Shown here in pieces: positions 6,510 to 35,616 of a stretch of 63,037 nt of DNA. The first letter of the stretch is position 1, and each line of letters opens with the position of its first letter. A program made the position numbers and the translations under genes. The DNA comes from an uncultured Phycisphaeraceae bacterium (GTDB lineage Bacteria; Planctomycetota; Phycisphaerae; UBA1845), in the NCBI GenBank assembly GCA_964648365.1, contig CAZYLK010000008.1, positions 1-63,037 of the forward strand, in the 5' to 3' direction. The notes under the pieces are model-generated. The model searched no databases and had not been told where the DNA came from. It saw nothing but the letters and a program-made list of their open reading frames with translations.

Positions 6510-6656
6510 GGGTGTGAGGGAATCAGGAAGGAAGCCGCGCCGCGTCACGCCGATCGAACCGGCCGCTGGCAGGTCTACCGCTATCGTCGTTGAGGGCGTT
6601 CGATCGGTAAAGCACCCGCGCAGAACCCGAACCGCCCAAGCCATGAGGACTACCCC

Positions 6657-10139
<3,483 letters not shown>

Positions 10140-26513: not shown

Positions 26514-26586
26514 ATTCGTTATTCGCTATTCGCCATTCGCTATTCGCCATTCGCCATTCGCCATTCGCTATTCGCCATTCGCCATT
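26514..26586. repeat. Heptanucleotide tandem array (ATTCGCC/ATTCGCT), about 10 units
   Basis: Read directly. The array abuts and includes the SNF2 stop codon (26585-26587). Confidence 0.95.
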
Positions 26587-29500
26587 AGTCCGCCACCGCG
26601 TCGTCCGACAACGTAAACAGCGATCGCAGCTTGTCGGTCGACAGTTCCGTCAGCCAGTGTTCGCCGGAGCCGATGATGTTCTCGGCCAGGTCGCGCTTGG
26701 CCTCCAGCATGGCGTCGATGCGCTCTTCGAGCGTGCCGACGCAGATAAACTTGTGAACCTGAATGCGGCGCGTCTGGCCGATACGGTAGGCGCGGTCGGT
26801 CGCCTGCTGCTCCACGGCCGGGTTCCACCAGCGATCAAAGTGAAACACATGGTTGGCCGCCGTCAGGTTCAGGCCCACGCCGCCCGCTTTCAGGGACAGG
26901 ATGAACACCGGCGTCTCGTCCCGCCGGGCCTGAAAGCGCTCGACCAGTTCGGTGCGCATGTGGTTGGGTGTACCGCCGTGCAGGAAGAGGATTTCGCGAT
27001 CGAGCGTGCGCTGCAGCAGTTCCTGCAATCGCTTGCCCATCTCGCGAAACTGCGTAAATACCAGGGCGAAATCTCCTTCCGCCACCACTTCCTCGAGCAT
27101 CTCGCGCAGCCGGTCGCACTTGCCGCTGCGTTCGGGCAGCGGACCCTCCTCACCGAGGAACTGCGCCGGATGATTGCAGATCTGCTTGAGTTTGACGATC
27201 GCCGCCAGGATCAGCCCGCGCCGCTGGATGCCGTCCGCGCCATCAATGCTGCCGAGCATCTCGCTCGTCACCGCCTGATACAAACCCGCCTGCTCGCGCG
27301 TCAGGTTGCAGTAGACGTTCATCTCCATCTTCTCCGGCAGATCGGAGATGATGTCCGGGTCGGTCTTGACGCGGCGCAGAATGAACGGGTGGATCAGACG
27401 ACGCAACCGGCGCGACTGCTCGCTGTCCTTGTGCCGCTCGATGGGCACCGCGAAGCGGCGGCGAAACTCGGTGGCCGGACCCAGCAGGTTGGGATTGAGG
27501 AAGTCCATGATGGACCACAGCTCCGTCAGCCGGTTCTCGATGGGCGTACCCGTCAGCGCCACGCGCCGACTCGTCTGGAGCGTGCGCACCGCTCGCGCCT
27601 GCTTGGCCGCGGGGTTCTTGATGTTCTGGGCTTCGTCGAGCACGACGCGATGCCACCGGACCGCGCCGAGGTGGTCATAGTCACGAAATGCCAGGCCGTA
27701 CGTGCTGACGACGATGTCGTACTCGCCGACCTGTTCCACGAAGGCCCGCCCCGACAACCGCTCCACCCCGTGATGCACCATCACCCTCAGCGACGGGGCG
27801 AACCGCTCGACTTCGCGCTGCCAGTTCCCAACCACCGACATGGGAACAATGATCAGCGTCGGCCCCGGACGTTCGCCGTTGCGCCGCTCATGCAGCAGCA
27901 GGCAGAGCAATTGAACCGTCTTGCCCAGGCCCATGTCATCCGCCAGGCACGCGCCCAGCCCATGCTGATCCAGAAACTCCAGCCATGACAGACCGTTGAG
28001 CTGGTAAGGCCGGAGCACGCCGTGCAGCCGTTCGGGGGGGGCAACCTCCGTGTACCGCACGTTCTGTCCGCCCGACAGCAGCCGGTCCACCCAACCGTCC
28101 GCCTGCACGCTGACGACCGGCAGCCCGGCGTCTGCCGCGCCGGGCATGTTGGCACGCCGCAGGATGTCGAAGACCGTCGCCTGGCCGTGCTCGTGCTCCC
28201 GCACGAACTCCACCGCCTGCTTCAGCGACGCGGAGTCCAACTCCATCCACCGCCCCCGCAGGCGAACCAGCGGCACGCTGAGCTGAGCCAGTCGCTCCAG
28301 TTCCTCGGAACTGAGCGTCTCCTCGCCGCAGGCCACCGACCATTGAAAGTCGACCAGCGCATCCAGACCGATGCCGCGCGGCAGTTCTTCTCCCACCGAG
28401 CGTGACGGCCGCAGGTCGAGCCGCAGCCCGATCCCCGCCTCCCGCGCCGTCCACCAGACCGGCTTCCAGACGCCGAAGCCCTCCAGTTCCAGCACCGGCG
28501 CCGCGTGTCGCAGGAACGCATGCGCCTCCGCCCGCGTCAACTTCAACGGATGCCGGCCGGCCGACTCGATGCATCGCTCGATGGGCGAAAAGTGTCGCGC
28601 CGCCCGCGGCAGATCCTCCCGCACCAGCCGGGCGGCATCCTGAAAGGGCCGACCGAGCACCGCCGGTCCGTGACGGCCGGGCTGAGTCGCCTGGTGCGCG
28701 TCGATGACCAGTTCGGGATTCTGAACCGACTGAACGTGAACAGTGAGTTTCCAATCTTCGCGCTCGTCGCGCGAACCCTCGCTCGTGTCCGGGGGGGGGT
28801 GAAGGCAGAAGCAGGTTCGGCACTCGTGAAACGCCGGGTCGATGTCCAGCCGCGCAATCCATGAGTGGACCCGCTCGGCCAGCACGGCCGCGGCTTCACC
28901 ATGAACGGGCACCGCGGTCCGGTCCGCCCGGACCAGCGCCGCCAGCCATTGCGTCTGCGCCGGCGCGCGATCCCCCGTCTGCGCCAGGATCGCATCCACC
29001 AGTTCCTCGTCATCCAGACAGCGGCGCACCGATGCATCCACCGTGCGCCACAGGAACGATTCGACAAGGTCGGCTGCGTCCAGCGGCGGCGCCGCGGAAG
29101 CATCCGCCGCCAGACAAACGCCCTCAACGGACGTGCCGGACTCGCGCCCGGGCGCAGGCGGGCCGGTGTGCGGCGAGAGTTCGCCACCGGCCGCAGGGAC
29201 GAATGACCGGCACACCGGCGGCATGGTTCCGATTGCCCGCTCAATCCACGCCCGCGTGCCCGCCTCACCCGCGATCGCGCGCCAGGCGGCACGCATCACC
29301 CCACGCGCATCAGTGTAGAGGTCCGGGACGAACTGCTCGGACGCCAGCAACCGCAACACGAATCGCGCGACGCGGACCCAGAACTCGAAGTCGGCCCCCA
29401 TGCGGGCGACCCGGTGGTCCGCAGCGCGGATCCCGCTGAGGATGTCCATCGCGTCGCCGGGCGAGAACGCCAGCGTCGGCACGCGACACGCCTCCAGCGT

Positions 29501-29845
29501 CACCGACGCCGGGACGACCGAAGTGGCGTCGTCTGCGCCTTCCGCCGGGTCGATCGATCCCCGCCCGGAAGCCGCCGGCGGGCGCCCGGCCATCGTGCTG
29601 GGCAAGGCTCGCCCGTCGGACGCAGGCAAACGCAGCACGATCTCGCATGACTCTGCCCCCATCACCAGCAGACTGTCGACCGCATCGCCGGCAATGTCGC
29701 GAAGCTCGGCCTCGTCGAAGGCGAAGGGGTGCTCGGCCGGAGCATCGCCCCTGACGTCAGTGCGGCCGGACATCTCGGACGCACCTTCAGCCTCGGCAAA
29801 GATGTGGAACCGATCGCCCGTCCATAGGCCGTGCAGAATCGTCAT
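26585..29845 (-). CDS. SNF2-family DEAD/DEAH-box helicase with a large N-terminal domain of unknown function
   Basis: C-terminal half: LRPYQLNGLSWL, DDMGLGKTVQ, VLDEAQNIKN, LTGTPIENRL, then the helicase-C motifs (GGVGLNLTAANHVFHFDRWWNPAVEQQATDRAYRIGQ). N-terminal about 560 aa not recognised. Start at the ATG at 29845 (MTILHGLW). Confidence 0.9.
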   Translation of the reverse strand: MTILHGLWTGDRFHIFAEAEGASEMSGRTDVRGDAPAEHPFAFDEAELRDIAGDAVDSLLVMGAESCEIVLRLPASDGRALPSTMAGRPPAASGRGSIDPAEGADDATSVVPASVTLEACRVPTLAFSPGDAMDILSGIRAADHRVARMGADFEFWVRVARFVLRLLASEQFVPDLYTDARGVMRAAWRAIAGEAGTRAWIERAIGTMPPVCRSFVPAAGGELSPHTGPPAPGRESGTSVEGVCLAADASAAPPLDAADLVESFLWRTVDASVRRCLDDEELVDAILAQTGDRAPAQTQWLAALVRADRTAVPVHGEAAAVLAERVHSWIARLDIDPAFHECRTCFCLHPPPDTSEGSRDEREDWKLTVHVQSVQNPELVIDAHQATQPGRHGPAVLGRPFQDAARLVREDLPRAARHFSPIERCIESAGRHPLKLTRAEAHAFLRHAAPVLELEGFGVWKPVWWTAREAGIGLRLDLRPSRSVGEELPRGIGLDALVDFQWSVACGEETLSSEELERLAQLSVPLVRLRGRWMELDSASLKQAVEFVREHEHGQATVFDILRRANMPGAADAGLPVVSVQADGWVDRLLSGGQNVRYTEVAPPERLHGVLRPYQLNGLSWLEFLDQHGLGACLADDMGLGKTVQLLCLLLHERRNGERPGPTLIIVPMSVVGNWQREVERFAPSLRVMVHHGVERLSGRAFVEQVGEYDIVVSTYGLAFRDYDHLGAVRWHRVVLDEAQNIKNPAAKQARAVRTLQTSRRVALTGTPIENRLTELWSIMDFLNPNLLGPATEFRRRFAVPIERHKDSEQSRRLRRLIHPFILRRVKTDPDIISDLPEKMEMNVYCNLTREQAGLYQAVTSEMLGSIDGADGIQRRGLILAAIVKLKQICNHPAQFLGEEGPLPERSGKCDRLREMLEEVVAEGDFALVFTQFREMGKRLQELLQRTLDREILFLHGGTPNHMRTELVERFQARRDETPVFILSLKAGGVGLNLTAANHVFHFDRWWNPAVEQQATDRAYRIGQTRRIQVHKFICVGTLEERIDAMLEAKRDLAENIIGSGEHWLTELSTDKLRSLFTLSDDAVAD

Positions 29846-30077
29846 GGCTGCGCGCGCTTCTCCGTCTCCGGCCGTCCGCCGGTCCCGGCCGCAACGCCCA
29901 CGGATCGCGGCGCTGTCGCCTCCGGGCGTCCGAGCGGAAGTCAACCCTGTTGTCGCGTTTCATCGCCCGAGGTCAAGCGCGGTCGAATTGTGCTCGCGAG
30001 AACGCCGTTCGCGGGTGGGAAGACGCGCGACGAACCCGGATGTGCGTCACTGCTCCGGGGCGGGGTGCCACGACTCC

Positions 30078-30305: not shown

Positions 30306-30947
30306 CTACCGCCGACGGCGGGACGGCGCGTACTGCCGCACGACGCCGATGACGACGCCCTGCACCTGGCATTCCTTGGGGTAGATCGGCGGATAATTGC
30401 CGTTGGCGGGCTGGAGGCGAATGCGGCCCCGCTCGCGGAAGATGGCCTTCAGCGTATTCTCGCCATCCGCCAGCGCCACCACGATGTCCCCGTCGCGCAC
30501 GTCGTTGCGCTGCTCGACGATGACCACGTCGCCGTCGCAAATGTGCTCGTCGATCATGCTGTCGCCCTTCACACGGATGGCGATGCGTTGATGCGGCGTG
30601 ACGAACGTGGTTTCCAGGTCGAACGTATCCCGATCCTCATACGCTTCGACCGGCATGCCGGCGGCGATCCGGCCCACCAGTGGGATCACCGTCGGCCGGT
30701 CCTCGGGAAACTTCGCCGACGCCGTCAATTCCAAAGAGCGTGCCTTGTTCGAGCGGCGCGTGACGAGCCCTTTTCGCAGCAGGGCCTCGACGTGCTCGAA
30801 CACGGTGATCTTTGAGATGCCCATGTGGTCCGCGATCTCCTGCAAGGTCGGGGAATAACCATTCGCCCGCCGGCCGTCGCGGATGCAGCGCATCACTTCC
30901 ATCTGCCGCGGGGTCAACGTCCGTTCGTCCGAGTCTGTCTTCACCAT
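30306..30947 (-). CDS. lexA: LexA repressor (S24 peptidase)
   Basis: Winged-helix N-terminus (TLTPRQMEVMRCIRD...SPTLQEIADHMGISKITVFEHVEALLRKGLV), the cleavage region PLVGRIAAGMP, the catalytic GDSM, and a downstream Lys (ENTLKAIF). Confidence 0.92.
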   Translation of the reverse strand: MVKTDSDERTLTPRQMEVMRCIRDGRRANGYSPTLQEIADHMGISKITVFEHVEALLRKGLVTRRSNKARSLELTASAKFPEDRPTVIPLVGRIAAGMPVEAYEDRDTFDLETTFVTPHQRIAIRVKGDSMIDEHICDGDVVIVEQRNDVRDGDIVVALADGENTLKAIFRERGRIRLQPANGNYPPIYPKECQVQGVVIGVVRQYAPSRRRR

Positions 30948-31356
30948 GCTTCGTCTCCACGAAACCCGCCAGGCCCGCGGGCCCGGTCACCACCGGCGGC
31001 AGCACACCCAGCCCGAGGACGAGGCGAAGCGCCCGAATCCGGCGCGCGGCGGCAAGCAACTCGCGCAGTTCACGAGCGGCCAACCGCACCACCCCCCGCC
31101 CGGCCCTGGCGCGGGCAGCGCCGCGCGCCGCAGGCCACGCCACGCGCTGAAGCCCCACGCGACCGTCCTCGCCCTCGCGCGCACACAAGGCAACCCGGTA
31201 CGACCCGCCCGGGCCGAAGAGGCACACCGGCCCCGCATCGCATTCCGAAACCGGTTCGCCACCCGCCGCGCCATCCCTGACGTGCTCCATCGCCGTCGTC
31301 CCACAAAGCTCATCGGGACCGACGCCGGTTCTCGTTTGAGCTTTGTTTGGTGTAGA

Positions 31357-31385
31357 AGTGTAGCCTAACATCGGACTAACGTCAA
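31357..31385 (-). promoter_or_regulatory. Sigma-70-type promoter TTGACG-17-TACACT pointing toward lexA
   Basis: Minus-strand reading TTGACGttagtccgatgttaggcTACACT. It lies about 400 nt upstream of the lexA ATG. Confidence 0.45.
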
Positions 31386-31605
31386 TCCTGACTTTCGCCC
31401 TTTTCTCGTCGATTCACGGCAAAAAACTCGCAGGATTCTGGCGCAATTTCCGCGCGTTCGCGGTTGTTGCGGCTGAGACCGCGGGTCGACTTCCCCGGAG
31501 TCGCGTCAGGGAACCCGCATCTCGGGGCGCCACCCCGGCGACCCCCAACCCATCGTGCGATCGGCTGCGTACGACCGACCCGCAGCCACCCTGCCCAGCC
31601 CATGC

Positions 31606-31622
31606 AGCAATAAATTATTGCT
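31606..31622. promoter_or_regulatory. Perfect palindrome AGCAATAA-A-TTATTGCT (candidate operator)
   Basis: An 8+1+8 inverted repeat in the most AT-rich patch I noticed in the window. It ends 8 nt before the -35 hexamer at 31630. Confidence 0.55.
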
Positions 31623-31629
31623 ACAACCA

Positions 31630-31658
31630 TTGACGAACGGCCGATCAGTGGCAATACT
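31630..31658 (+). promoter_or_regulatory. Sigma-70-type promoter TTGACG-17-AATACT
   Basis: Hexamers and the 17-nt spacer were read directly. Candidate start codons for the downstream gene are at 31660, 31684 and 31696. Confidence 0.45.
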
Positions 31659-31683
31659 CATGGATGTTCGTAATGTGTTTGGT

Positions 31684-33369
31684 ATGGAGCAAACCATGTT
31701 TCAGCCTCAGGAGCGGAGCGGCGTGGTTCTCGATCGGCACCGGCCATTTCCTGCGCCGACGACGCGGATGGAGGATGTGACGAGCTCACGCCAACGAAGG
31801 CGAAACCGAGCCGATGATGCGACCCCCGATCATGCGTCGCCACGTCCGGCGCGACGGCGTCAGGATCCACGGCCGCCGGCGCGGCGGCAGACGCGCCCGA
31901 TCGCTCAGACGCCCGCGGCGTCGCCCACCACGACGGTCACGGTCCGGGCCGATGTCGCGCTGCCGCCGGTTCGACGGACCGAGCGTACGATCCGGGTCGC
32001 GACGACCTTCGGACTGGCGCTCGATCGGGTCACACGCCGCCTGATCGAGCGCGTCAGCCTGTGCCTTTCCGCGGGGCGGATCGTCCTGCTCCACGGTCCC
32101 TCCGGCACTGGCAAGACCACCGTCATGAAGGCACTGGCGGAATCGCTGCCCCATCGCATCGTGGTCGACGTGGTCAACTTCCCCCGCGACAAGGCGATCA
32201 TCGACGCGGTCGGCGACTGCCTGCCCTTCGATGAATCGCTGGCGCTGCTGAGCCGTTGCGCCCTGGGCGAAGCGCCGCTCTGGTTGCGCAGCATCGACGA
32301 GTTGTCCTGCGGTCAGCGGTCGCGGGCGGCGCTGGCCCGCGCGCTGGCGGTCGCGCTCGCGGCTCGCCCGCGGCCGGTCGTGCTGTGCGACGAGTTCGCC
32401 GCCGGGCTGCACCGCCGCGCGGCGCGGGGACTGAGCTACAACCTGCGGCGGCTCGTCTCGCGGCACGGCTATTGCGCCGTTGTCGCCACGTGCTCCGAGG
32501 ATCCGGCCGTCGACCTGTCCCCGGATGTCGTCATCCAGTTCGCGGACGGCGGGCGATGCACGGTTGACGAACGGTCGCCGCGAGCGGCGCGGCCATTCAG
32601 CCTGCGCCGCACGCTGACGATCGAGGCGGGTCGCAAGCAGGACTACGAGCACTTCGCCGCCATGCACTATCGTTCGGCGGACGAACTCGGCTTCGTCGAT
32701 AAGGTCTACCTTCTCCGCGAACGTGGCATCGGACGAAGCACCCGCGCGACCGCAGGTGCTGCCCGCGGTCGCCGCTCGGGAACCACATCGCTGACGACCG
32801 GGCGGCGCGACGACATCCTCGGCATCATCGTGTACGCGCACGGGCCGCGCGAACTGGCGCTGCGCAACGAAGCAACCGGGGGGCGCTTCCTCCGGAATCT
32901 CGAGCGCCTCAACCGCGAGTGCCGCATCATCCGCCGACTGGTCATCCATCCCGACGTGCGCGGCTGCGGGCTGGGCCGGATGCTGGTGCGGCGAACCCTC
33001 TCGATGGTCGGCACGCGGTTCGTCGAGTGCCTGGCTACGATGGGCGACGTCAACCCCGTCTTCGAGCGGGCCGGGATGCGCCGCATCGGCCGCTGCGTTC
33101 ATCCGCAGTGCGTCCGCGCGTCGCTGGACCGTCTGAGGGCGCTGGGCGTTGATCCTTGCGACGGCGCCTTCACCGCCCGAGTCTGCCGCAGCCGCGAGGT
33201 GCGCGACGTCGTCGCCGACGCCGTCGCGACGTGGTACTGGTCCACCGTCGGCAACGGCGACCGGCGCGTCGCCCGGCAGTCACCCGAGATGCTGGCCCAG
33301 CTCTTCCGAAACCTGATGTCGAGCCGGCCGGTGTACTACTTGTGGGAGGGGAGAACGTCGAAAACGTGA
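31684..33369 (+). CDS. ABC-type ATPase fused to a GNAT-like acetyltransferase domain (uncharacterised)
   Basis: Arg/Pro-rich N-terminus. Walker A GPSGTGKTT, signature variant LSCGQRSRAALARAL, Walker B VVLCDEFAAGLH, then IIRRLVIHPDVRGCGLGRMLV (GNAT motif A-like). Start uncertain (31660, 31684 or 31696). Confidence 0.7.
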   Translation: MEQTMFQPQERSGVVLDRHRPFPAPTTRMEDVTSSRQRRRNRADDATPDHASPRPARRRQDPRPPARRQTRPIAQTPAASPTTTVTVRADVALPPVRRTERTIRVATTFGLALDRVTRRLIERVSLCLSAGRIVLLHGPSGTGKTTVMKALAESLPHRIVVDVVNFPRDKAIIDAVGDCLPFDESLALLSRCALGEAPLWLRSIDELSCGQRSRAALARALAVALAARPRPVVLCDEFAAGLHRRAARGLSYNLRRLVSRHGYCAVVATCSEDPAVDLSPDVVIQFADGGRCTVDERSPRAARPFSLRRTLTIEAGRKQDYEHFAAMHYRSADELGFVDKVYLLRERGIGRSTRATAGAARGRRSGTTSLTTGRRDDILGIIVYAHGPRELALRNEATGGRFLRNLERLNRECRIIRRLVIHPDVRGCGLGRMLVRRTLSMVGTRFVECLATMGDVNPVFERAGMRRIGRCVHPQCVRASLDRLRALGVDPCDGAFTARVCRSREVRDVVADAVATWYWSTVGNGDRRVARQSPEMLAQLFRNLMSSRPVYYLWEGRTSKT

Positions 33370-33534
33370 CGCGCCGGGCGAGACTGACGCAGCCCACCCG
33401 TAACGTGTGTGGCGCTGGTGGAAATGCTCGCTCCGGACCGATGATAACCTCGGGTGGGCGCCCGGCAGATCCAACTGGGCCGTCGCCGAGTTGGAGGAAC
33501 CACGGGAGTCTTCGAGAGTCTGGAGGACTGCAGA

Positions 33535-35616
33535 ATGGCAGGTCGGAAGGTACGCGGTCCGCGGTGGGCTACCGTCGCGATGACAGGTGCGCTGGTCTGT
33601 CATGCGCATGCACAGGGTCGTCCCGACGTCACCTGGATGGCCGGTGGACACGGAGACTGGGTTACCGACGTAGCCTATTCTCAGGATGGTCGGTTGCTGA
33701 TCACCTGCGGCAGCGAAGCAAAGCTCTGGCGCGTGTCGGACGGCACGTTGTTGCGTACGCTTCCGCGATCGTCACAAATCGCGGCGTTCTCACCGGACGG
33801 CGAATGCGTCGTAACGATGGCTGCCGGGGGGCGCGATCTGCAACTCTGGCGCGTCGCGGACGGACGCCTGCTCTGGAAACGCGACACCGCGTATTTCAAC
33901 GATTTCTGCTTTGCACCGGACGGTCAGACGCTTTTCGTCGCGCAGGACGACGGAAGGCTCACGCTCTGGAAGATGCCGGCCGGCGAACTGATCGAAACGC
34001 GAACCGCACATCAAGACGGCATCTCCTCTGTCGCGATTTCACCCGATGGCGAACTGCTGGCCACCGGCAGCCGAGACTTGACGTTGAAGCTATGGCGATC
34101 GTTGGATGGTGAACTCATCCGGACGTTTGACGACGACGACGAGGTGCTGGGTGTGGAGTTCTCGCCTGACCAACGCACGCTCGCGTCGGCCGGGAAGGAG
34201 TTCGGGGCAAGGCTCAAGCTCTGGCGCATCGCGGACGGTCAGTTGCTGCGTACCTTTGATGAGCAACTCGAGTTCGCCAGCGACATCACGTTCTCCCCGG
34301 ACGCCCGGACGCTGGCCGCATGTGGATCCTCCGGCGTCGTTCGGTTGTGGCACGTCGATGACGGCGGATTTCTGGGGACGTTGACGGGACATCGGGGCAC
34401 GGTTCGCGCCATTGCCTTCTCTCCGGATGGACGCCTGCTTGCGTCGGGCGGCAATGATCACATGCTTCGGCTTTGGCGCGTGGCACGACTCAGGCAGGTC
34501 GGCACCCTCACCCAGCATACGGAGGCGGTGCATGGCTTTGCGTTTTCGCCGGACGGCCAGTGGGTCGCGACCGGCAGCCACGACGGCACGGTGCGGCTCA
34601 TCCAGGCGCTCGACGGCGCGCCGGTGCGAACGCTCGCGCAAGGCAAGGGCGAAGTCTGGCGGCTCGCCTTTTCACCGGACAGCCGGATTCTCGCCGTTGG
34701 CAGCGAGTCGGGCGCGCTCGAATTGTACGAATTACCGAACGGCGAGCTGGTTCGAAGCTTCGCCTTCGGAGGCGTGCGTTCGCTCGACTTCTCTTCTGAC
34801 GGCACGCTGCTGGGGGCGGGGTCCATCGGTGGTCAGGGACAGGTTTGGCGCGTTTCCGACGGTTCGATCGTTCACACCATCAGCGACGGCGCCGTCGGCG
34901 TCTCGTTCGGACCGGACGGGAAAACGCTGGCCTCGTGCGGCGGGACGGGGCGCGACCGGATGCAGGTGTGGAGCATCCCCGGCGGCGAACTGATCCAGTC
35001 GATAGTCGCGAATATCTACTTCCGATCAATCGCGTACTCCCCGGACGGCCGTACGATCGCCGCCGGGGGCATCTGGGGCAGGATCACGCTGTGGCGCATT
35101 TCTGACGGTGCGATGCTGTGGGAGCAATGGACCCCCGGACACGCGGCCGCGGTGGACGCCATCAGCTTCTCCCCCGACGGTCGGACAGTCATCTCCTCCG
35201 CAGAGGCGTTCAGCAGCGTCTGTATCTGGCGGGTCGCGGACGGCGCACTTCTTGATGGCTTCAATGAGGAAACGCGCACCGCCTACTCAGCCCAATACTC
35301 GGCCGACGGCCGCGCGGTGGGTTGGGGACGGTCTGACGCATCCGCCGTGGTCGCGGGAAGTCCCTACCAGGGAGAGGTCGATTGCGGTGGCGGTACGCGG
35401 CTGGTCGTGCGCTGCCCTCGCAGCGGCGCGAAGGTCGTCGCGCGAGTCAAGGCAGCCACGCCTGGCATGGAGGTCACGTTCACGCTCGACAGCCAGATGT
35501 CGCGGACGATCGAAACGGACGACCGGGGAACGGCGCGCGTCCGCTATTCAGCCAACGAACAAGGCGACCACACCGTTCGAGCCTGCGGCCTGAAGACGGC
35601 CTGTGCTGGGCCTTGA
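33535..35616 (+). CDS. Secreted WD40-repeat beta-propeller protein with a C-terminal Cys-bounded module
   Basis: GGAGGA lies 8 nt before the ATG at 33535. Signal peptide MAGRKVRGPRWATVAMTGALVCHAHAQG. At least 14 repeats of the type H...V..[IV]AFSPDG..LA[ST]G..D..L+LWR..DG.L[IL]RT. Confidence 0.9.
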   Translation: MAGRKVRGPRWATVAMTGALVCHAHAQGRPDVTWMAGGHGDWVTDVAYSQDGRLLITCGSEAKLWRVSDGTLLRTLPRSSQIAAFSPDGECVVTMAAGGRDLQLWRVADGRLLWKRDTAYFNDFCFAPDGQTLFVAQDDGRLTLWKMPAGELIETRTAHQDGISSVAISPDGELLATGSRDLTLKLWRSLDGELIRTFDDDDEVLGVEFSPDQRTLASAGKEFGARLKLWRIADGQLLRTFDEQLEFASDITFSPDARTLAACGSSGVVRLWHVDDGGFLGTLTGHRGTVRAIAFSPDGRLLASGGNDHMLRLWRVARLRQVGTLTQHTEAVHGFAFSPDGQWVATGSHDGTVRLIQALDGAPVRTLAQGKGEVWRLAFSPDSRILAVGSESGALELYELPNGELVRSFAFGGVRSLDFSSDGTLLGAGSIGGQGQVWRVSDGSIVHTISDGAVGVSFGPDGKTLASCGGTGRDRMQVWSIPGGELIQSIVANIYFRSIAYSPDGRTIAAGGIWGRITLWRISDGAMLWEQWTPGHAAAVDAISFSPDGRTVISSAEAFSSVCIWRVADGALLDGFNEETRTAYSAQYSADGRAVGWGRSDASAVVAGSPYQGEVDCGGGTRLVVRCPRSGAKVVARVKAATPGMEVTFTLDSQMSRTIETDDRGTARVRYSANEQGDHTVRACGLKTACAGP

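Follow-up and report, generated by a model that had tools for sequence, protein, structure and literature searches.

What is a compact ATPase of the ABC type doing when it is joined to an acetyltransferase-like domain, left without a transporter partner and placed behind a promoter crowded with repeats? This question is raised by a locus on a contig of an uncultured Phycisphaeraceae bacterium (GenBank assembly GCA_964648365.1, contig CAZYLK010000008.1, positions 1 to 63,037 of the forward strand), and this whole stretch of 63,037 nucleotides (nt) is called the window below. Judging by sequence and profile comparisons, the ABC-GNAT gene of this locus is a two-gene ABC plus GNAT-like module of phages and prophages that has become fused and, in this form, occurs on chromosomes across Phycisphaerae. 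We consider it probable that its product is an SOS-inducible, ATP-gated acyl transferase of phage ancestry that is held off by one or two RecA-cleavable repressors. The comparisons reported here show the identities of the domains, the relationship with phage genes, the conservation of the operators and a promoter motif common to this gene and SOS genes. The gene and the parts of its product are as follows.

31696..33369, forward strand: coding sequence of the ABC ATPase-GNAT fusion, 557 amino acids (aa) plus stop (stop codon 33367-33369)
31686-31689, forward strand: Shine-Dalgarno sequence GGAG, 6 nt 5' of the ATG at 31696, read from the sequence
31696..31920, forward strand: disordered Arg/Pro-rich N-terminal tail, aa 1 to ~75, variable between homologues
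31930..32580, forward strand: compact ABC-type ATPase domain, aa ~79-295, without the H-loop His
32095-32118, forward strand: Walker A
32302-32316, forward strand: signature LSCGQ
32377-32394, forward strand: Walker B and catalytic Glu
32593..33366, forward strand: GNAT-fold domain, aa 300-557, with the CoA-binding motif RGCGLG at aa 422-427

The ATPase was recognized at the level of both sequence and structure. Pfam ABC_tran matched above its cut-off (E 4e-10), many generic P-loop families were found as well, and a profile of 66 family members retrieved ABC domains of transporters as well as of UvrA from the PDB. An AlphaFold2 (AF2) model built on the 66-sequence alignment was confident as a whole (predicted local distance difference test, pLDDT, 84; predicted template modelling score, pTM, 0.79), with the exception of residues 1-66 and a lineage-specific loop. 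With this whole model, Foldseek returned only ABC nucleotide-binding domains (HrtA and LptB at E 1e-10, template modelling (TM) score ~0.66 on the target). The motifs GPSGTGKT (K140), LSCGQ (S204, G206) and LCDEF (D232, E233) are invariant in the 66 sequences, and the protein thus has the Walker A, signature, Walker B with catalytic Glu and fold that define the ABC ATPase superfamily. All the motifs quoted in the original prediction, namely GPSGTGKTT, LSCGQRSRAALARAL, VVLCDEFAAGLH, VVATCSED and IIRRLVIHPDVRGCGLGRMLV, are present in the protein.

The domain departs from the usual pattern in several places. The H-loop reads VVATCSED and the lineage consensus is VLAxSxDD, so the loss of the H-loop His, suspected earlier for this one protein, extends throughout the lineage. 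Additionally, the stretch from Walker A to the signature is shortened (~63 residues), an invariant Asp (D170) and no conserved Gln stands at the Q-loop position, and the D-loop Asp has given way to an invariant His (H239). Loss of the H-loop His points to a protein that turns ATP over slowly and acts as a switch, not as a motor.

A separate model was made for the C-terminal half, as the whole protein had returned ABC domains only. This model (AF2, pLDDT 86) matched solved GNAT structures in the PDB with probability 1.0 and E ~1e-4 (SpeG, YhbS, AtaT, AAC(6')-Ib and Mom); ArsN and KacT were among the PDB matches too, and BFVD gave viral GNATs. The highest query TM-score, 0.41, belonged to Mom of phage Mu (8bv8; E 7e-4, 13% identity). 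The matches in PDB and BFVD were generic, and no GNAT subfamily stood out among them. In the 66-sequence alignment R422-G-C-G425-L-G427, which corresponds to the CoA-binding R-x-x-G-x-G, is invariant or nearly so, and a helical insert of ~75 residues (aa ~471-545) precedes the last strand (PVYYLW). Pfam GNAT families gave weak matches below cut-off (Acetyltransf_7 at E 0.0035; range 0.0035-0.017), and there was no Pfam match to GNAT_acetyltr_2 or Helicase_RecD. Fold and motif together place the domain in the GNAT superfamily, with the Pfam models below their cut-offs; the GNAT-like core read from the letters alone was therefore confirmed at the level of the fold, though the match in sequence is weak.

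In front of these domains lies the Arg/Pro-rich tail, which had been put at about 150 aa. It is about half as long, ~75 aa, the larger figure having arisen because 47 codons upstream of the real start were counted in. Residues 1-66 have a pLDDT below 50, the conserved core begins near residue 79-90, and nothing before this point aligns with homologues; a short DRHxPF motif alone is common to the tail and the closest relative (L001). No DNA-binding domain was detected in the protein.

At least 382 homologues were found at E <1e-3, and those with a named source all come from metagenome-assembled genomes (MAGs) of Phycisphaerae or Planctomycetota. They are 45-52% identical over a core of ~460 residues, the closest being 72% identical, and a scan of one genome per species located relatives in 156 stretches. 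One homologue (P0095) carries the IMG name 'ABC-type ATPase with predicted acetyltransferase domain', and a phage homologue, CYRAN_122, is annotated 'MK0520 protein, ABC-type ATPase fused to a predicted acetyltransferase domain'. These annotated names suggest that the protein is of the COG2401/'MK0520' type, which the original prediction had mentioned.

The origin of the fusion became apparent from its separate halves. With the GNAT half as query, phmmer found 1096 relatives (337 below 1e-10) among 1.84 billion representative proteins. Some of these relatives stand alone, with 250-280 aa, and others are fusions of 450-500 aa. Three independent prophage-like islands carry the stand-alone forms in one layout (L093 2808-8771, L094 4830-10414 and L095 4400-10520, the last identical to L096): a CI-type repressor with HTH_3 and S24 domains, divergent from genes for a small protein resembling sigma-70 region 4, an ABC ATPase of 226-250 aa, a GNAT-like protein, ParB_N, TerS and TerL. 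In hhalign comparisons the halves of the window protein matched these stand-alone proteins with 100% probability, residues 89-295 against the ABC proteins at E 3e-42 and residues 293-557 against the GNAT-like proteins at E 2e-44. An association with an S24 repressor is seen, by gene content, in fused and split forms alike.

Phage genomes gave a consistent picture. The window protein matched phrog_11143 (1.5e-26), phrog_293 (5.7e-22) and, with its GNAT part, phrog_886 (4.9e-8). A tblastn search of phage genomes with the window GNAT half found nothing, so the phage link runs through the more distant stand-alone homologue P0295 and the profile comparisons. With P0295 the same kind of search recovered 28 records, from Rhizobium phages, Pseudomonas Nickievirus and SSU5-like phage-plasmids of Salmonella, E. 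coli and Klebsiella. The gene for the ABC ATPase, with that for the GNAT-like protein behind it, comes after a ParB-like gene and a gene for a ParB-like nuclease or methyltransferase in SSU5, Cyrano and nickie. Beyond the pair, nickie has genes for a DNA-binding (small-terminase-like) protein and then for terminase, portal and capsid; the SSU5 and Cyrano records stop shortly past the GNAT-like gene. The ABC ATPases of these pairs (PHROG 293/11143; SSU5_127, nickie gp157, CYRAN_121) are homologous to the ABC half of the window protein and the GNAT-like proteins (PHROG 886; SSU5_129, nickie gp155, CYRAN_122) to its GNAT half. Motifs common to both include FGL before Walker A, LSDGQ/E-RxR, DEF, HYR, RN-AT, RGxGL, NPFFEKAGM and PVYYLW. 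The phage genes are separate and have ParB-like and terminase genes beside them, and their ABC part retains the H-loop His (VATTHxDL in the split ABC proteins), whereas the window protein is fused, stands on an ordinary chromosome without ParB or terminase neighbours and has a LexA-type box. Literature searches on COG2401, on MK0520, on the name of the COG and on these phage genes found no relevant paper.

Two observations on the islands may be added. The seven-gene island of L094 is surrounded by ordinary genes of the chromosome, neither a portal nor a capsid gene being visible, and such islands may be a satellite-like element or a degraded prophage. In L095 only, a GC-rich gap of 415 nt (6585-7001) separates the ABC and GNAT-like genes; it holds, on the reverse strand, a sub-threshold match to the Rfam Acido-Lenti-1 RNA (26 bits, E 0.001; gathering score 37).

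If the gene was domesticated from phages, what controls it? The features upstream of the start codon are listed here.

31606-31622, strand not assigned: perfect palindrome AGCAATAA-A-TTATTGCT with core GCAATA-N3-TATTGC, candidate XRE-S24 operator
31630-31658, forward strand: sigma-70-type promoter TTGACG-17-AATACT, from a consensus scan
31651-31656, strand not assigned: third GCAATA half-site, on the -10 hexamer, giving the inverted repeat 31616-31624 / 31648-31656
31666-31682, forward strand: direct repeat GTTCGT-N5-GTTTGG with an 11-nt period, just 3' of the -10; candidate LexA (SOS) box

No other 60- or 100-nt stretch of the window is as rich in AT as the patch that had drawn attention to this promoter (31602-31703, GC 0.40-0.41 against 0.668 overall). 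Only two sigma-70-like sites were found in 30900-33700, against 0.2 expected by chance, and the other one is the lexA promoter. The same architecture recurs in L001 and in ~60 orthologous loci, as TTGACA, 17 nt and TATAGT/TATGTT, which confirms the proposed promoter as real and conserved.

The forward open reading frame (ORF) 31555-33369, from which the gene had been described, is also real. It opens at GTG 31555, and the gene proper occupies 31696-33369: protein P0001, called on the window's own contig, has exactly 557 aa, and GAGGA/GGAGG with an ATG occurs at the equivalent place in L001 and L058. Two other start codons were rejected. The ATG at 31660 lies upstream of any transcription start set by the -10 at 31653-31658, and the ATG at 31684 has no counterpart in L001, whereas the one at 31696 has both the GGAG and conserved counterparts. 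The idea of a leaderless mRNA had to be abandoned, as a leader of ~30 nt carrying GGAG precedes the start. An Rfam scan of 30800-33700 gave no credible RNA family.

The palindrome is exact, with 0.01 matches expected by chance, and is the sole AT-rich 8+8 palindrome in the window, where no further copy was found within 3 mismatches. L001 retains the core, and 34 out of 60 orthologous promoters contain TATTGC/GCAATA half-sites or palindromes, some arrangements of which overlap the -35, as in TATTGACAAGCAATA. The third half-site, which L001 has as well, forms its inverted repeat with the right palindrome arm, on the other side of the -35.

A possible binder was revealed by a survey of neighbours, for which 80 related loci were fetched and their ORFs clustered. 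In 33 of the 65 loci with enough flank, the ABC-GNAT gene (cluster c0) is directly preceded on the same strand by a gene (cluster c1) for an XRE-S24 protein of ~220 aa. This protein combines HTH_3 (8.8e-11) with Peptidase_S24 (2e-12) in Pfam and has the Ala-Gly, the Ser of DSMEP and the Lys of TLKR. Its own promoters hold TATTGC/GCAATA half-sites, often palindromic (L034: TATTGCTATATAGCAATA), and the repressor therefore appears, from the sites, to autoregulate through them. Tight control by a dimeric repressor, as originally proposed, was thus a good reading, since the half-site recurs in the promoters of a neighbouring XRE and S24 repressor. In several of these promoters (L022, L028, L034, L041, L060, L068, L069 and others) a -10-like TAATAT, TATTAT or GATAAT abuts the ATG, and the repressor mRNAs look leaderless by this arrangement, as for many CI-type repressors.

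The second operator, a direct repeat, had been overlooked in the original prediction, as had the phage origin; the true link with LexA would lie in this operator and not in gene adjacency. In orthologous promoters the repeat GTTNGG-N5-GTTNGG (consensus TATAGTTAGGTATATGTTAGGGT) sits on and just after the -10. It occurs exactly in 47 of 74 such promoters, against 0.06 expected, and with one mismatch in 72 of the 74 loci (the chance expectation was computed for the exact count only). A position weight matrix (PWM) was built from the orthologous c0 promoter sites, and its top three hits of the whole window all fall in the lexA/c0 intergenic region: 31661-31688 (forward, 16.8), 31358-31385 (reverse, 11.8, in the lexA promoter) and 31329-31356 (forward, 7.5). 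No hit of 6 or more occurs elsewhere in the window, and those that the 80 loci gave at other places (L043, L078 and others) showed nothing interpretable. Motif regular expressions for RecA, UvrA, DinB, RuvB and RecN found no other SOS gene in the window. The repeat is absent from the c1 promoters.

The lexA gene itself offers the counterpart of this operator.

30306..30947, reverse strand: lexA, 213 aa; Pfam LexA_DNA_bind 9e-15 and Peptidase_S24 2.6e-30
31357..31385, reverse strand: lexA promoter TTGACG-17-TACACT, from a consensus scan
31380-31364, reverse strand: repeat GTTAGT-N5-GTTAGG in the lexA -35 and spacer, within the second-best PWM hit
31334..31350, forward strand: opposite repeat GTTTGA-N5-GTTTGG just 3' of the lexA -10, within the third-best PWM hit; half-sites 3 and 4 of the lexA operator

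The window LexA is 95% identical to a 'transcriptional repressor LexA' of a Phycisphaerales MAG at NCBI, and canonical LexA is widespread in Phycisphaerae. Eight further lexA loci were fetched, and the nine promoters, with that of the window included, align as TTGACGTTCGG-N5-GTTAGG-nTAnACT-N4-6-CCGAAC-N6-CGAAC. The lexA operator thus has four half-sites, of which two form a direct repeat spanning the -35 and spacer and the other two, inverted, follow the -10. In 7 of the 9 promoters the matrix scores 11-20, values equalled by 0-4 of 300 shuffles.

A metagenome scan for the lexA-type pattern TTGACGTTNGGNNNNNGTTMGGNTA returned 120 hits, ~89 of which have at least 1 kb of sequence downstream. A same-strand lexA follows 74 hits, to be set against the ~89 usable ones, at a median distance of 459 nt; other hits precede recA (2; L164 and L195), a Y-family polymerase (2; L196 and L104) and a radical-SAM DNA-repair protein (2; L149 and L153). 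As lexA, recA, Y-family polymerase and radical-SAM genes make up the composition of an SOS regulon, we read the direct repeat as a LexA box, and the operator upstream of c0 carries the motif found at lexA and other SOS genes and conserved in orthologues. GTTNGG-N5-GTTNGG is therefore likely, on sequence grounds, to be the SOS box of the Phycisphaerae lineage.

Further genes were seen behind the lexA-type promoter in metagenome contigs, namely in L118 and L160 (first ORFs), L154 and L177. A small protein (…EEFICEALTPVPGTGDV…RFTWRGDEYRI…) with a larger ORF behind it makes up part of the set, and the others are an ATPase of the RecA-like/AAA_25 type and a protein resembling NYN; these are candidate new members of the SOS regulon.

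That the gene is divergent from lexA, as first described, is true of the window and is not a conserved trait. A tblastn search of the 80 loci with the window LexA located canonical lexA in the fetched flanks of only 2 of the 79 distinct loci: on the contig of the closest relative (L001 = L002), where it is also divergent, and in L070, 1.4 kb upstream on the same strand. Adjacency to lexA was accordingly dropped as a conserved feature.

Some observations concern lexA alone. In all nine lexA loci examined, a leader of 410-780 nt separates the SOS-box promoter from the lexA ATG. These leaders (window 30950-31290, reverse strand; L082, L084, L085, L087, L089-L092, L133) contain an uncalled ORF with the conserved peptide motif PLC(V/L)FGPGG(S/E/D)(Y/F), and the window copy starts MEHVRD...PVCLFGPGGSYRV. 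In all nine loci the ORF keeps the same frame relative to lexA and crosses the lexA start (..CATGG..) without a stop, so that in the window it would overlap lexA by ~310 nt. When the leader was aligned with that of L001, some indels were not multiples of three, so that the coding signal was ambiguous; the peptide motif was seen later, across the nine loci. A perfect 10-nt inverted repeat, ACAAAGCTCA / TGAGCTTTGT (31303-31312 / 31337-31346, 24-nt loop), lies at the extreme 5' end of the predicted lexA transcript and overlaps the downstream SOS half-sites; 7 nt of it are kept in L001. The strand of lexA also carries, 360 nt downstream of it, an ORF of 1119 aa resembling SNF2-family helicases (26585-29944, reverse strand).

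Besides c1, one other neighbour recurs. In 30 out of 76 loci (among L003-L081) a small hydrophobic protein without a Pfam family is encoded directly downstream on the same strand, with a core of ~60 aa (...PLRSRKVRVALATV..AFAAEFGL.VSEELVLTILGVGVSLILGIAHEDAG...; for example L049 7711-7926 and L068 7303-7584). This protein may act as a partner in the membrane, or else be a small membrane protein induced by the SOS response. The window was searched for the XRE-S24 gene and for the small hydrophobic gene, and neither was found.

From this material we infer the pairing of repressors with sites, induction by damage, ATP gating, acyl transfer and the kind of target, which together would give the following scheme. 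LexA and the XRE-S24 protein would repress the sigma-70 promoter, the former through the direct repeat and the latter through the TATTGC/GCAATA inverted repeats. DNA damage would activate RecA, the repressors would cleave themselves, and the gene would be derepressed. Both candidate repressors are predicted self-cleaving S24 proteins, so induction by DNA damage is expected whichever of them binds which site. The product would be cytoplasmic, a compact ABC-type ATPase without a membrane partner joined to a GNAT-fold acyl-CoA transferase domain. ABC ATPases in general dimerize head to tail when driven by ATP, and ATP binding may likewise close two of these ABC domains and so gate or position the two GNAT domains. 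The acyl group of an acyl-CoA would then pass to a target, which probably has an association with nucleic acid. The basic tail and Arg-rich surface point this way, as do the UvrA-like hits and the ParB and terminase genes that accompany the pair in phages.

Several points weigh against this scheme. Without the H-loop His and a Q-loop Gln, ATP turnover may be slow or absent. The GNAT domain reaches no Pfam cut-off and joins no functionally defined subfamily, and acyl transfer is deduced from the modelled fold and RGCGLG. The box in the window is degenerate, its score of 16.8 barely exceeding the best shuffle (15.5), and the PWM was trained on the c0 promoters themselves; the box owes its credibility to its position and to conservation in L001 and other loci. 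Assigning the TATTGC sites to the XRE-S24 protein and the direct repeat to LexA presupposes that both repressors autoregulate. No XRE-S24 gene whose product could bind the window's palindrome was found in the window or on the L001 contig. The terminase-adjacent context in phages could mean a role unrelated to DNA damage. Finally, the basis of the whole is computational, and nearly every related sequence comes from a MAG or metagenome.

How do other explanations compare? One is an ordinary ABC transporter ATPase subunit whose permease is encoded elsewhere and whose GNAT-like region is a regulatory appendage. Besides the Pfam ABC_tran match, it can point to NCBIfam and PDB matches that are mostly to transporter nucleotide-binding domains, as well as to several source databases that name homologues 'ABC-type ... 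transport system ATPase subunit'. The NCBIfam matches are fragmentary, however, and all score far under the family cut-offs (47 bits against 131-550). The protein also lacks what a transporter subunit needs, namely the Q-loop Gln, the H-loop His, a full permease-contacting helical subdomain (here the shortened ~63-residue stretch) and a permease: no permease or binding protein lies near the window gene or among the recurrent neighbours in the 80 loci, the three islands and the phages. Homologues in phages and prophages are located in packaging gene clusters. Pfam, Foldseek and the neighbour survey thus bear out an ABC-type ATPase with no transporter partner, as it was first described, and we reject the transporter explanation as highly improbable. 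A second explanation, which we hold to be unlikely, makes the product a growth-arresting or suicide effector, either a GNAT toxin acting on aminoacyl-tRNA, as TacT and AtaT do, or an abortive-infection effector, released upon damage or prophage induction and with the hydrophobic protein as its membrane-acting partner. Double repression at one promoter does suggest a product that is harmful at the wrong time, and the module is of phage or prophage origin, keeps its S24 repressor whether fused or split and has the conserved hydrophobic gene downstream. AtaT and KacT are among the Foldseek matches, but they match no better than SpeG, YhbS or AAC(6'), and the weak PADLOC hits (mad3 at 1e-12, residues 210-266; mad8 at 1.6e-7, residues 119-166) are partial and limited to generic ABC motifs, with no full-length match and no partner genes of a defence system. 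No ribbon-helix-helix (RHH) or other antitoxin-like gene was found among the recurrent neighbours, which, with a two-domain protein of 557 aa, is not the make-up of a TacAT, AtaRT or KacAT system. Moreover, inheritance looks vertical across the whole class, in ordinary chromosomal contexts unlike defence islands, and in lytic phages the gene pair accompanies packaging genes.

The same packaging genes bring up a role in handling phage DNA. The pair might carry out a Mom-like, acyl-CoA-dependent base modification with an ABC clamp, or be a ParB-like or terminase accessory of packaging. What Phycisphaerae have would be a remnant of it, domesticated so as to act, once damage has occurred, on the DNA of the chromosome or on a protein bound to DNA. 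This is attractive in that the order ParB-like, ParB nuclease or methyltransferase, ABC, GNAT-like, TerS, TerL recurs in unrelated phages and the three islands, Mom has the top query TM-score, UvrA is among the best profile matches of the ABC part, the protein is Arg-rich with a basic tail, and the regulation is of the SOS type. Nevertheless, the match to Mom is indistinguishable from generic GNAT similarity, the protein has no detectable DNA-binding domain, the terminase-adjacent order may merely reflect co-expression of late genes, and the searched literature gave nothing on these phage genes; we give this explanation a low probability. A more specific picture, a clamp of phage origin driven by ATP that modifies DNA in the manner of Mom or a DNA-bound protein, domesticated, induced by damage and governed by two RecA-cleavable repressors, with GTTNGG-N5-GTTNGG as the SOS box of this branch, is in our judgement similarly doubtful. 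The last alternative concerns regulation. A factor other than LexA, either the XRE-S24 repressor or an activator of the response-regulator type, might bind the direct repeat, which would leave the gene outside the SOS regulon and the palindrome as its sole repressor site. It is true that OmpR/PhoB-type regulators, too, typically have direct repeats with 11-nt spacing, that the copy in the window is degenerate and that the split islands carry an inverted GTTAGA...TAAC after the -10 instead of a direct repeat. Against this, a repeat with the same period organizes all nine lexA promoters examined, stands in front of lexA in 74 metagenome hits and of recA, Y-family polymerase and radical-SAM genes in others, is absent from the XRE-S24 gene's own promoters and lies over the -10/+1, the position of a repressor. 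We regard such a factor as quite improbable.

The SOS-inducible acyl transferase that we favour can be set beside several known systems. It has the N-terminal ABC ATPase and C-terminal GNAT-like domain of the COG2401/'MK0520' proteins, as compared through annotated names; the window lineage differs in having lost the H-loop His and in its variable basic tail and SOS-type control. To our knowledge, COG2401 has no known function and is known as an uncharacterised domain fusion only. TmcA/NAT10 (Kre33) joins an NTPase domain to a GNAT domain and acetylates RNA cytidine in a reaction that depends on NTP hydrolysis. The likeness, an NTPase coupled to a GNAT that acts on a macromolecule, is an analogy only: TmcA has a RecD-like helicase domain and tRNA-binding domains, for which the window protein shows no such sequence or Pfam match. 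The GNAT toxins TacT, AtaT and KacT share the GNAT fold and tight repression, and are single-domain proteins of ~170 aa with an RHH antitoxin, whereas the window protein has a fused ATPase, a helical insert of 75 residues and no antitoxin neighbour.

On the side of regulation, a direct-repeat LexA motif, GTTC-N7-GTTC, is known from Alphaproteobacteria (PMC8565304). It resembles the present repeat in its 11-nt period, its GTT core and its place in the promoters of lexA, recA and an error-prone polymerase; here the half-site is GTTNGG (GTTAGG/GTTCGG), lexA has four half-sites and the organisms are Planctomycetota. LexA of Planctomycetes does not use the E. coli motif (PMC3108266), and the searched papers say nothing further about it. 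XRE-type LexA proteins occur in Bacteroidetes (PMC8565304). The XRE-S24 repressor, with its XRE helix-turn-helix, its Peptidase_S24 domain bearing Ala-Gly, Ser and Lys, and its apparent autoregulation through palindromic sites, resembles these and the CI-like S24 repressors of phages (PMC8565304; PMC13148647). It differs in that it coexists with a canonical LexA and seems, by prediction, to be dedicated to one gene.

Within the reach of our searches, three things appear to be new at the level of sequence: the descent of the fusion from paired ABC and GNAT-like genes of phages, its assignment to a regulon of the SOS type in which it also has a second S24 repressor of its own, and the candidate SOS box itself. 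An uncharacterised COG2401-type family thereby gains a probable inducing signal, DNA damage, and probable regulators, LexA and a dedicated XRE-S24 repressor, as well as an evolutionary link to a gene pair that lies by the packaging genes in many large tailed phages and phage-plasmids (SSU5-like, Nickievirus and Rhizobium phages). If ATP gating is true, an acetyltransferase governed by an ABC dimer would be a new coupling of nucleotide binding to acyl transfer. For Phycisphaerae and their relatives, in which the searched papers define no SOS box, the repeat is a candidate LexA motif that would let the SOS regulon of Phycisphaerae be predicted from sequence.

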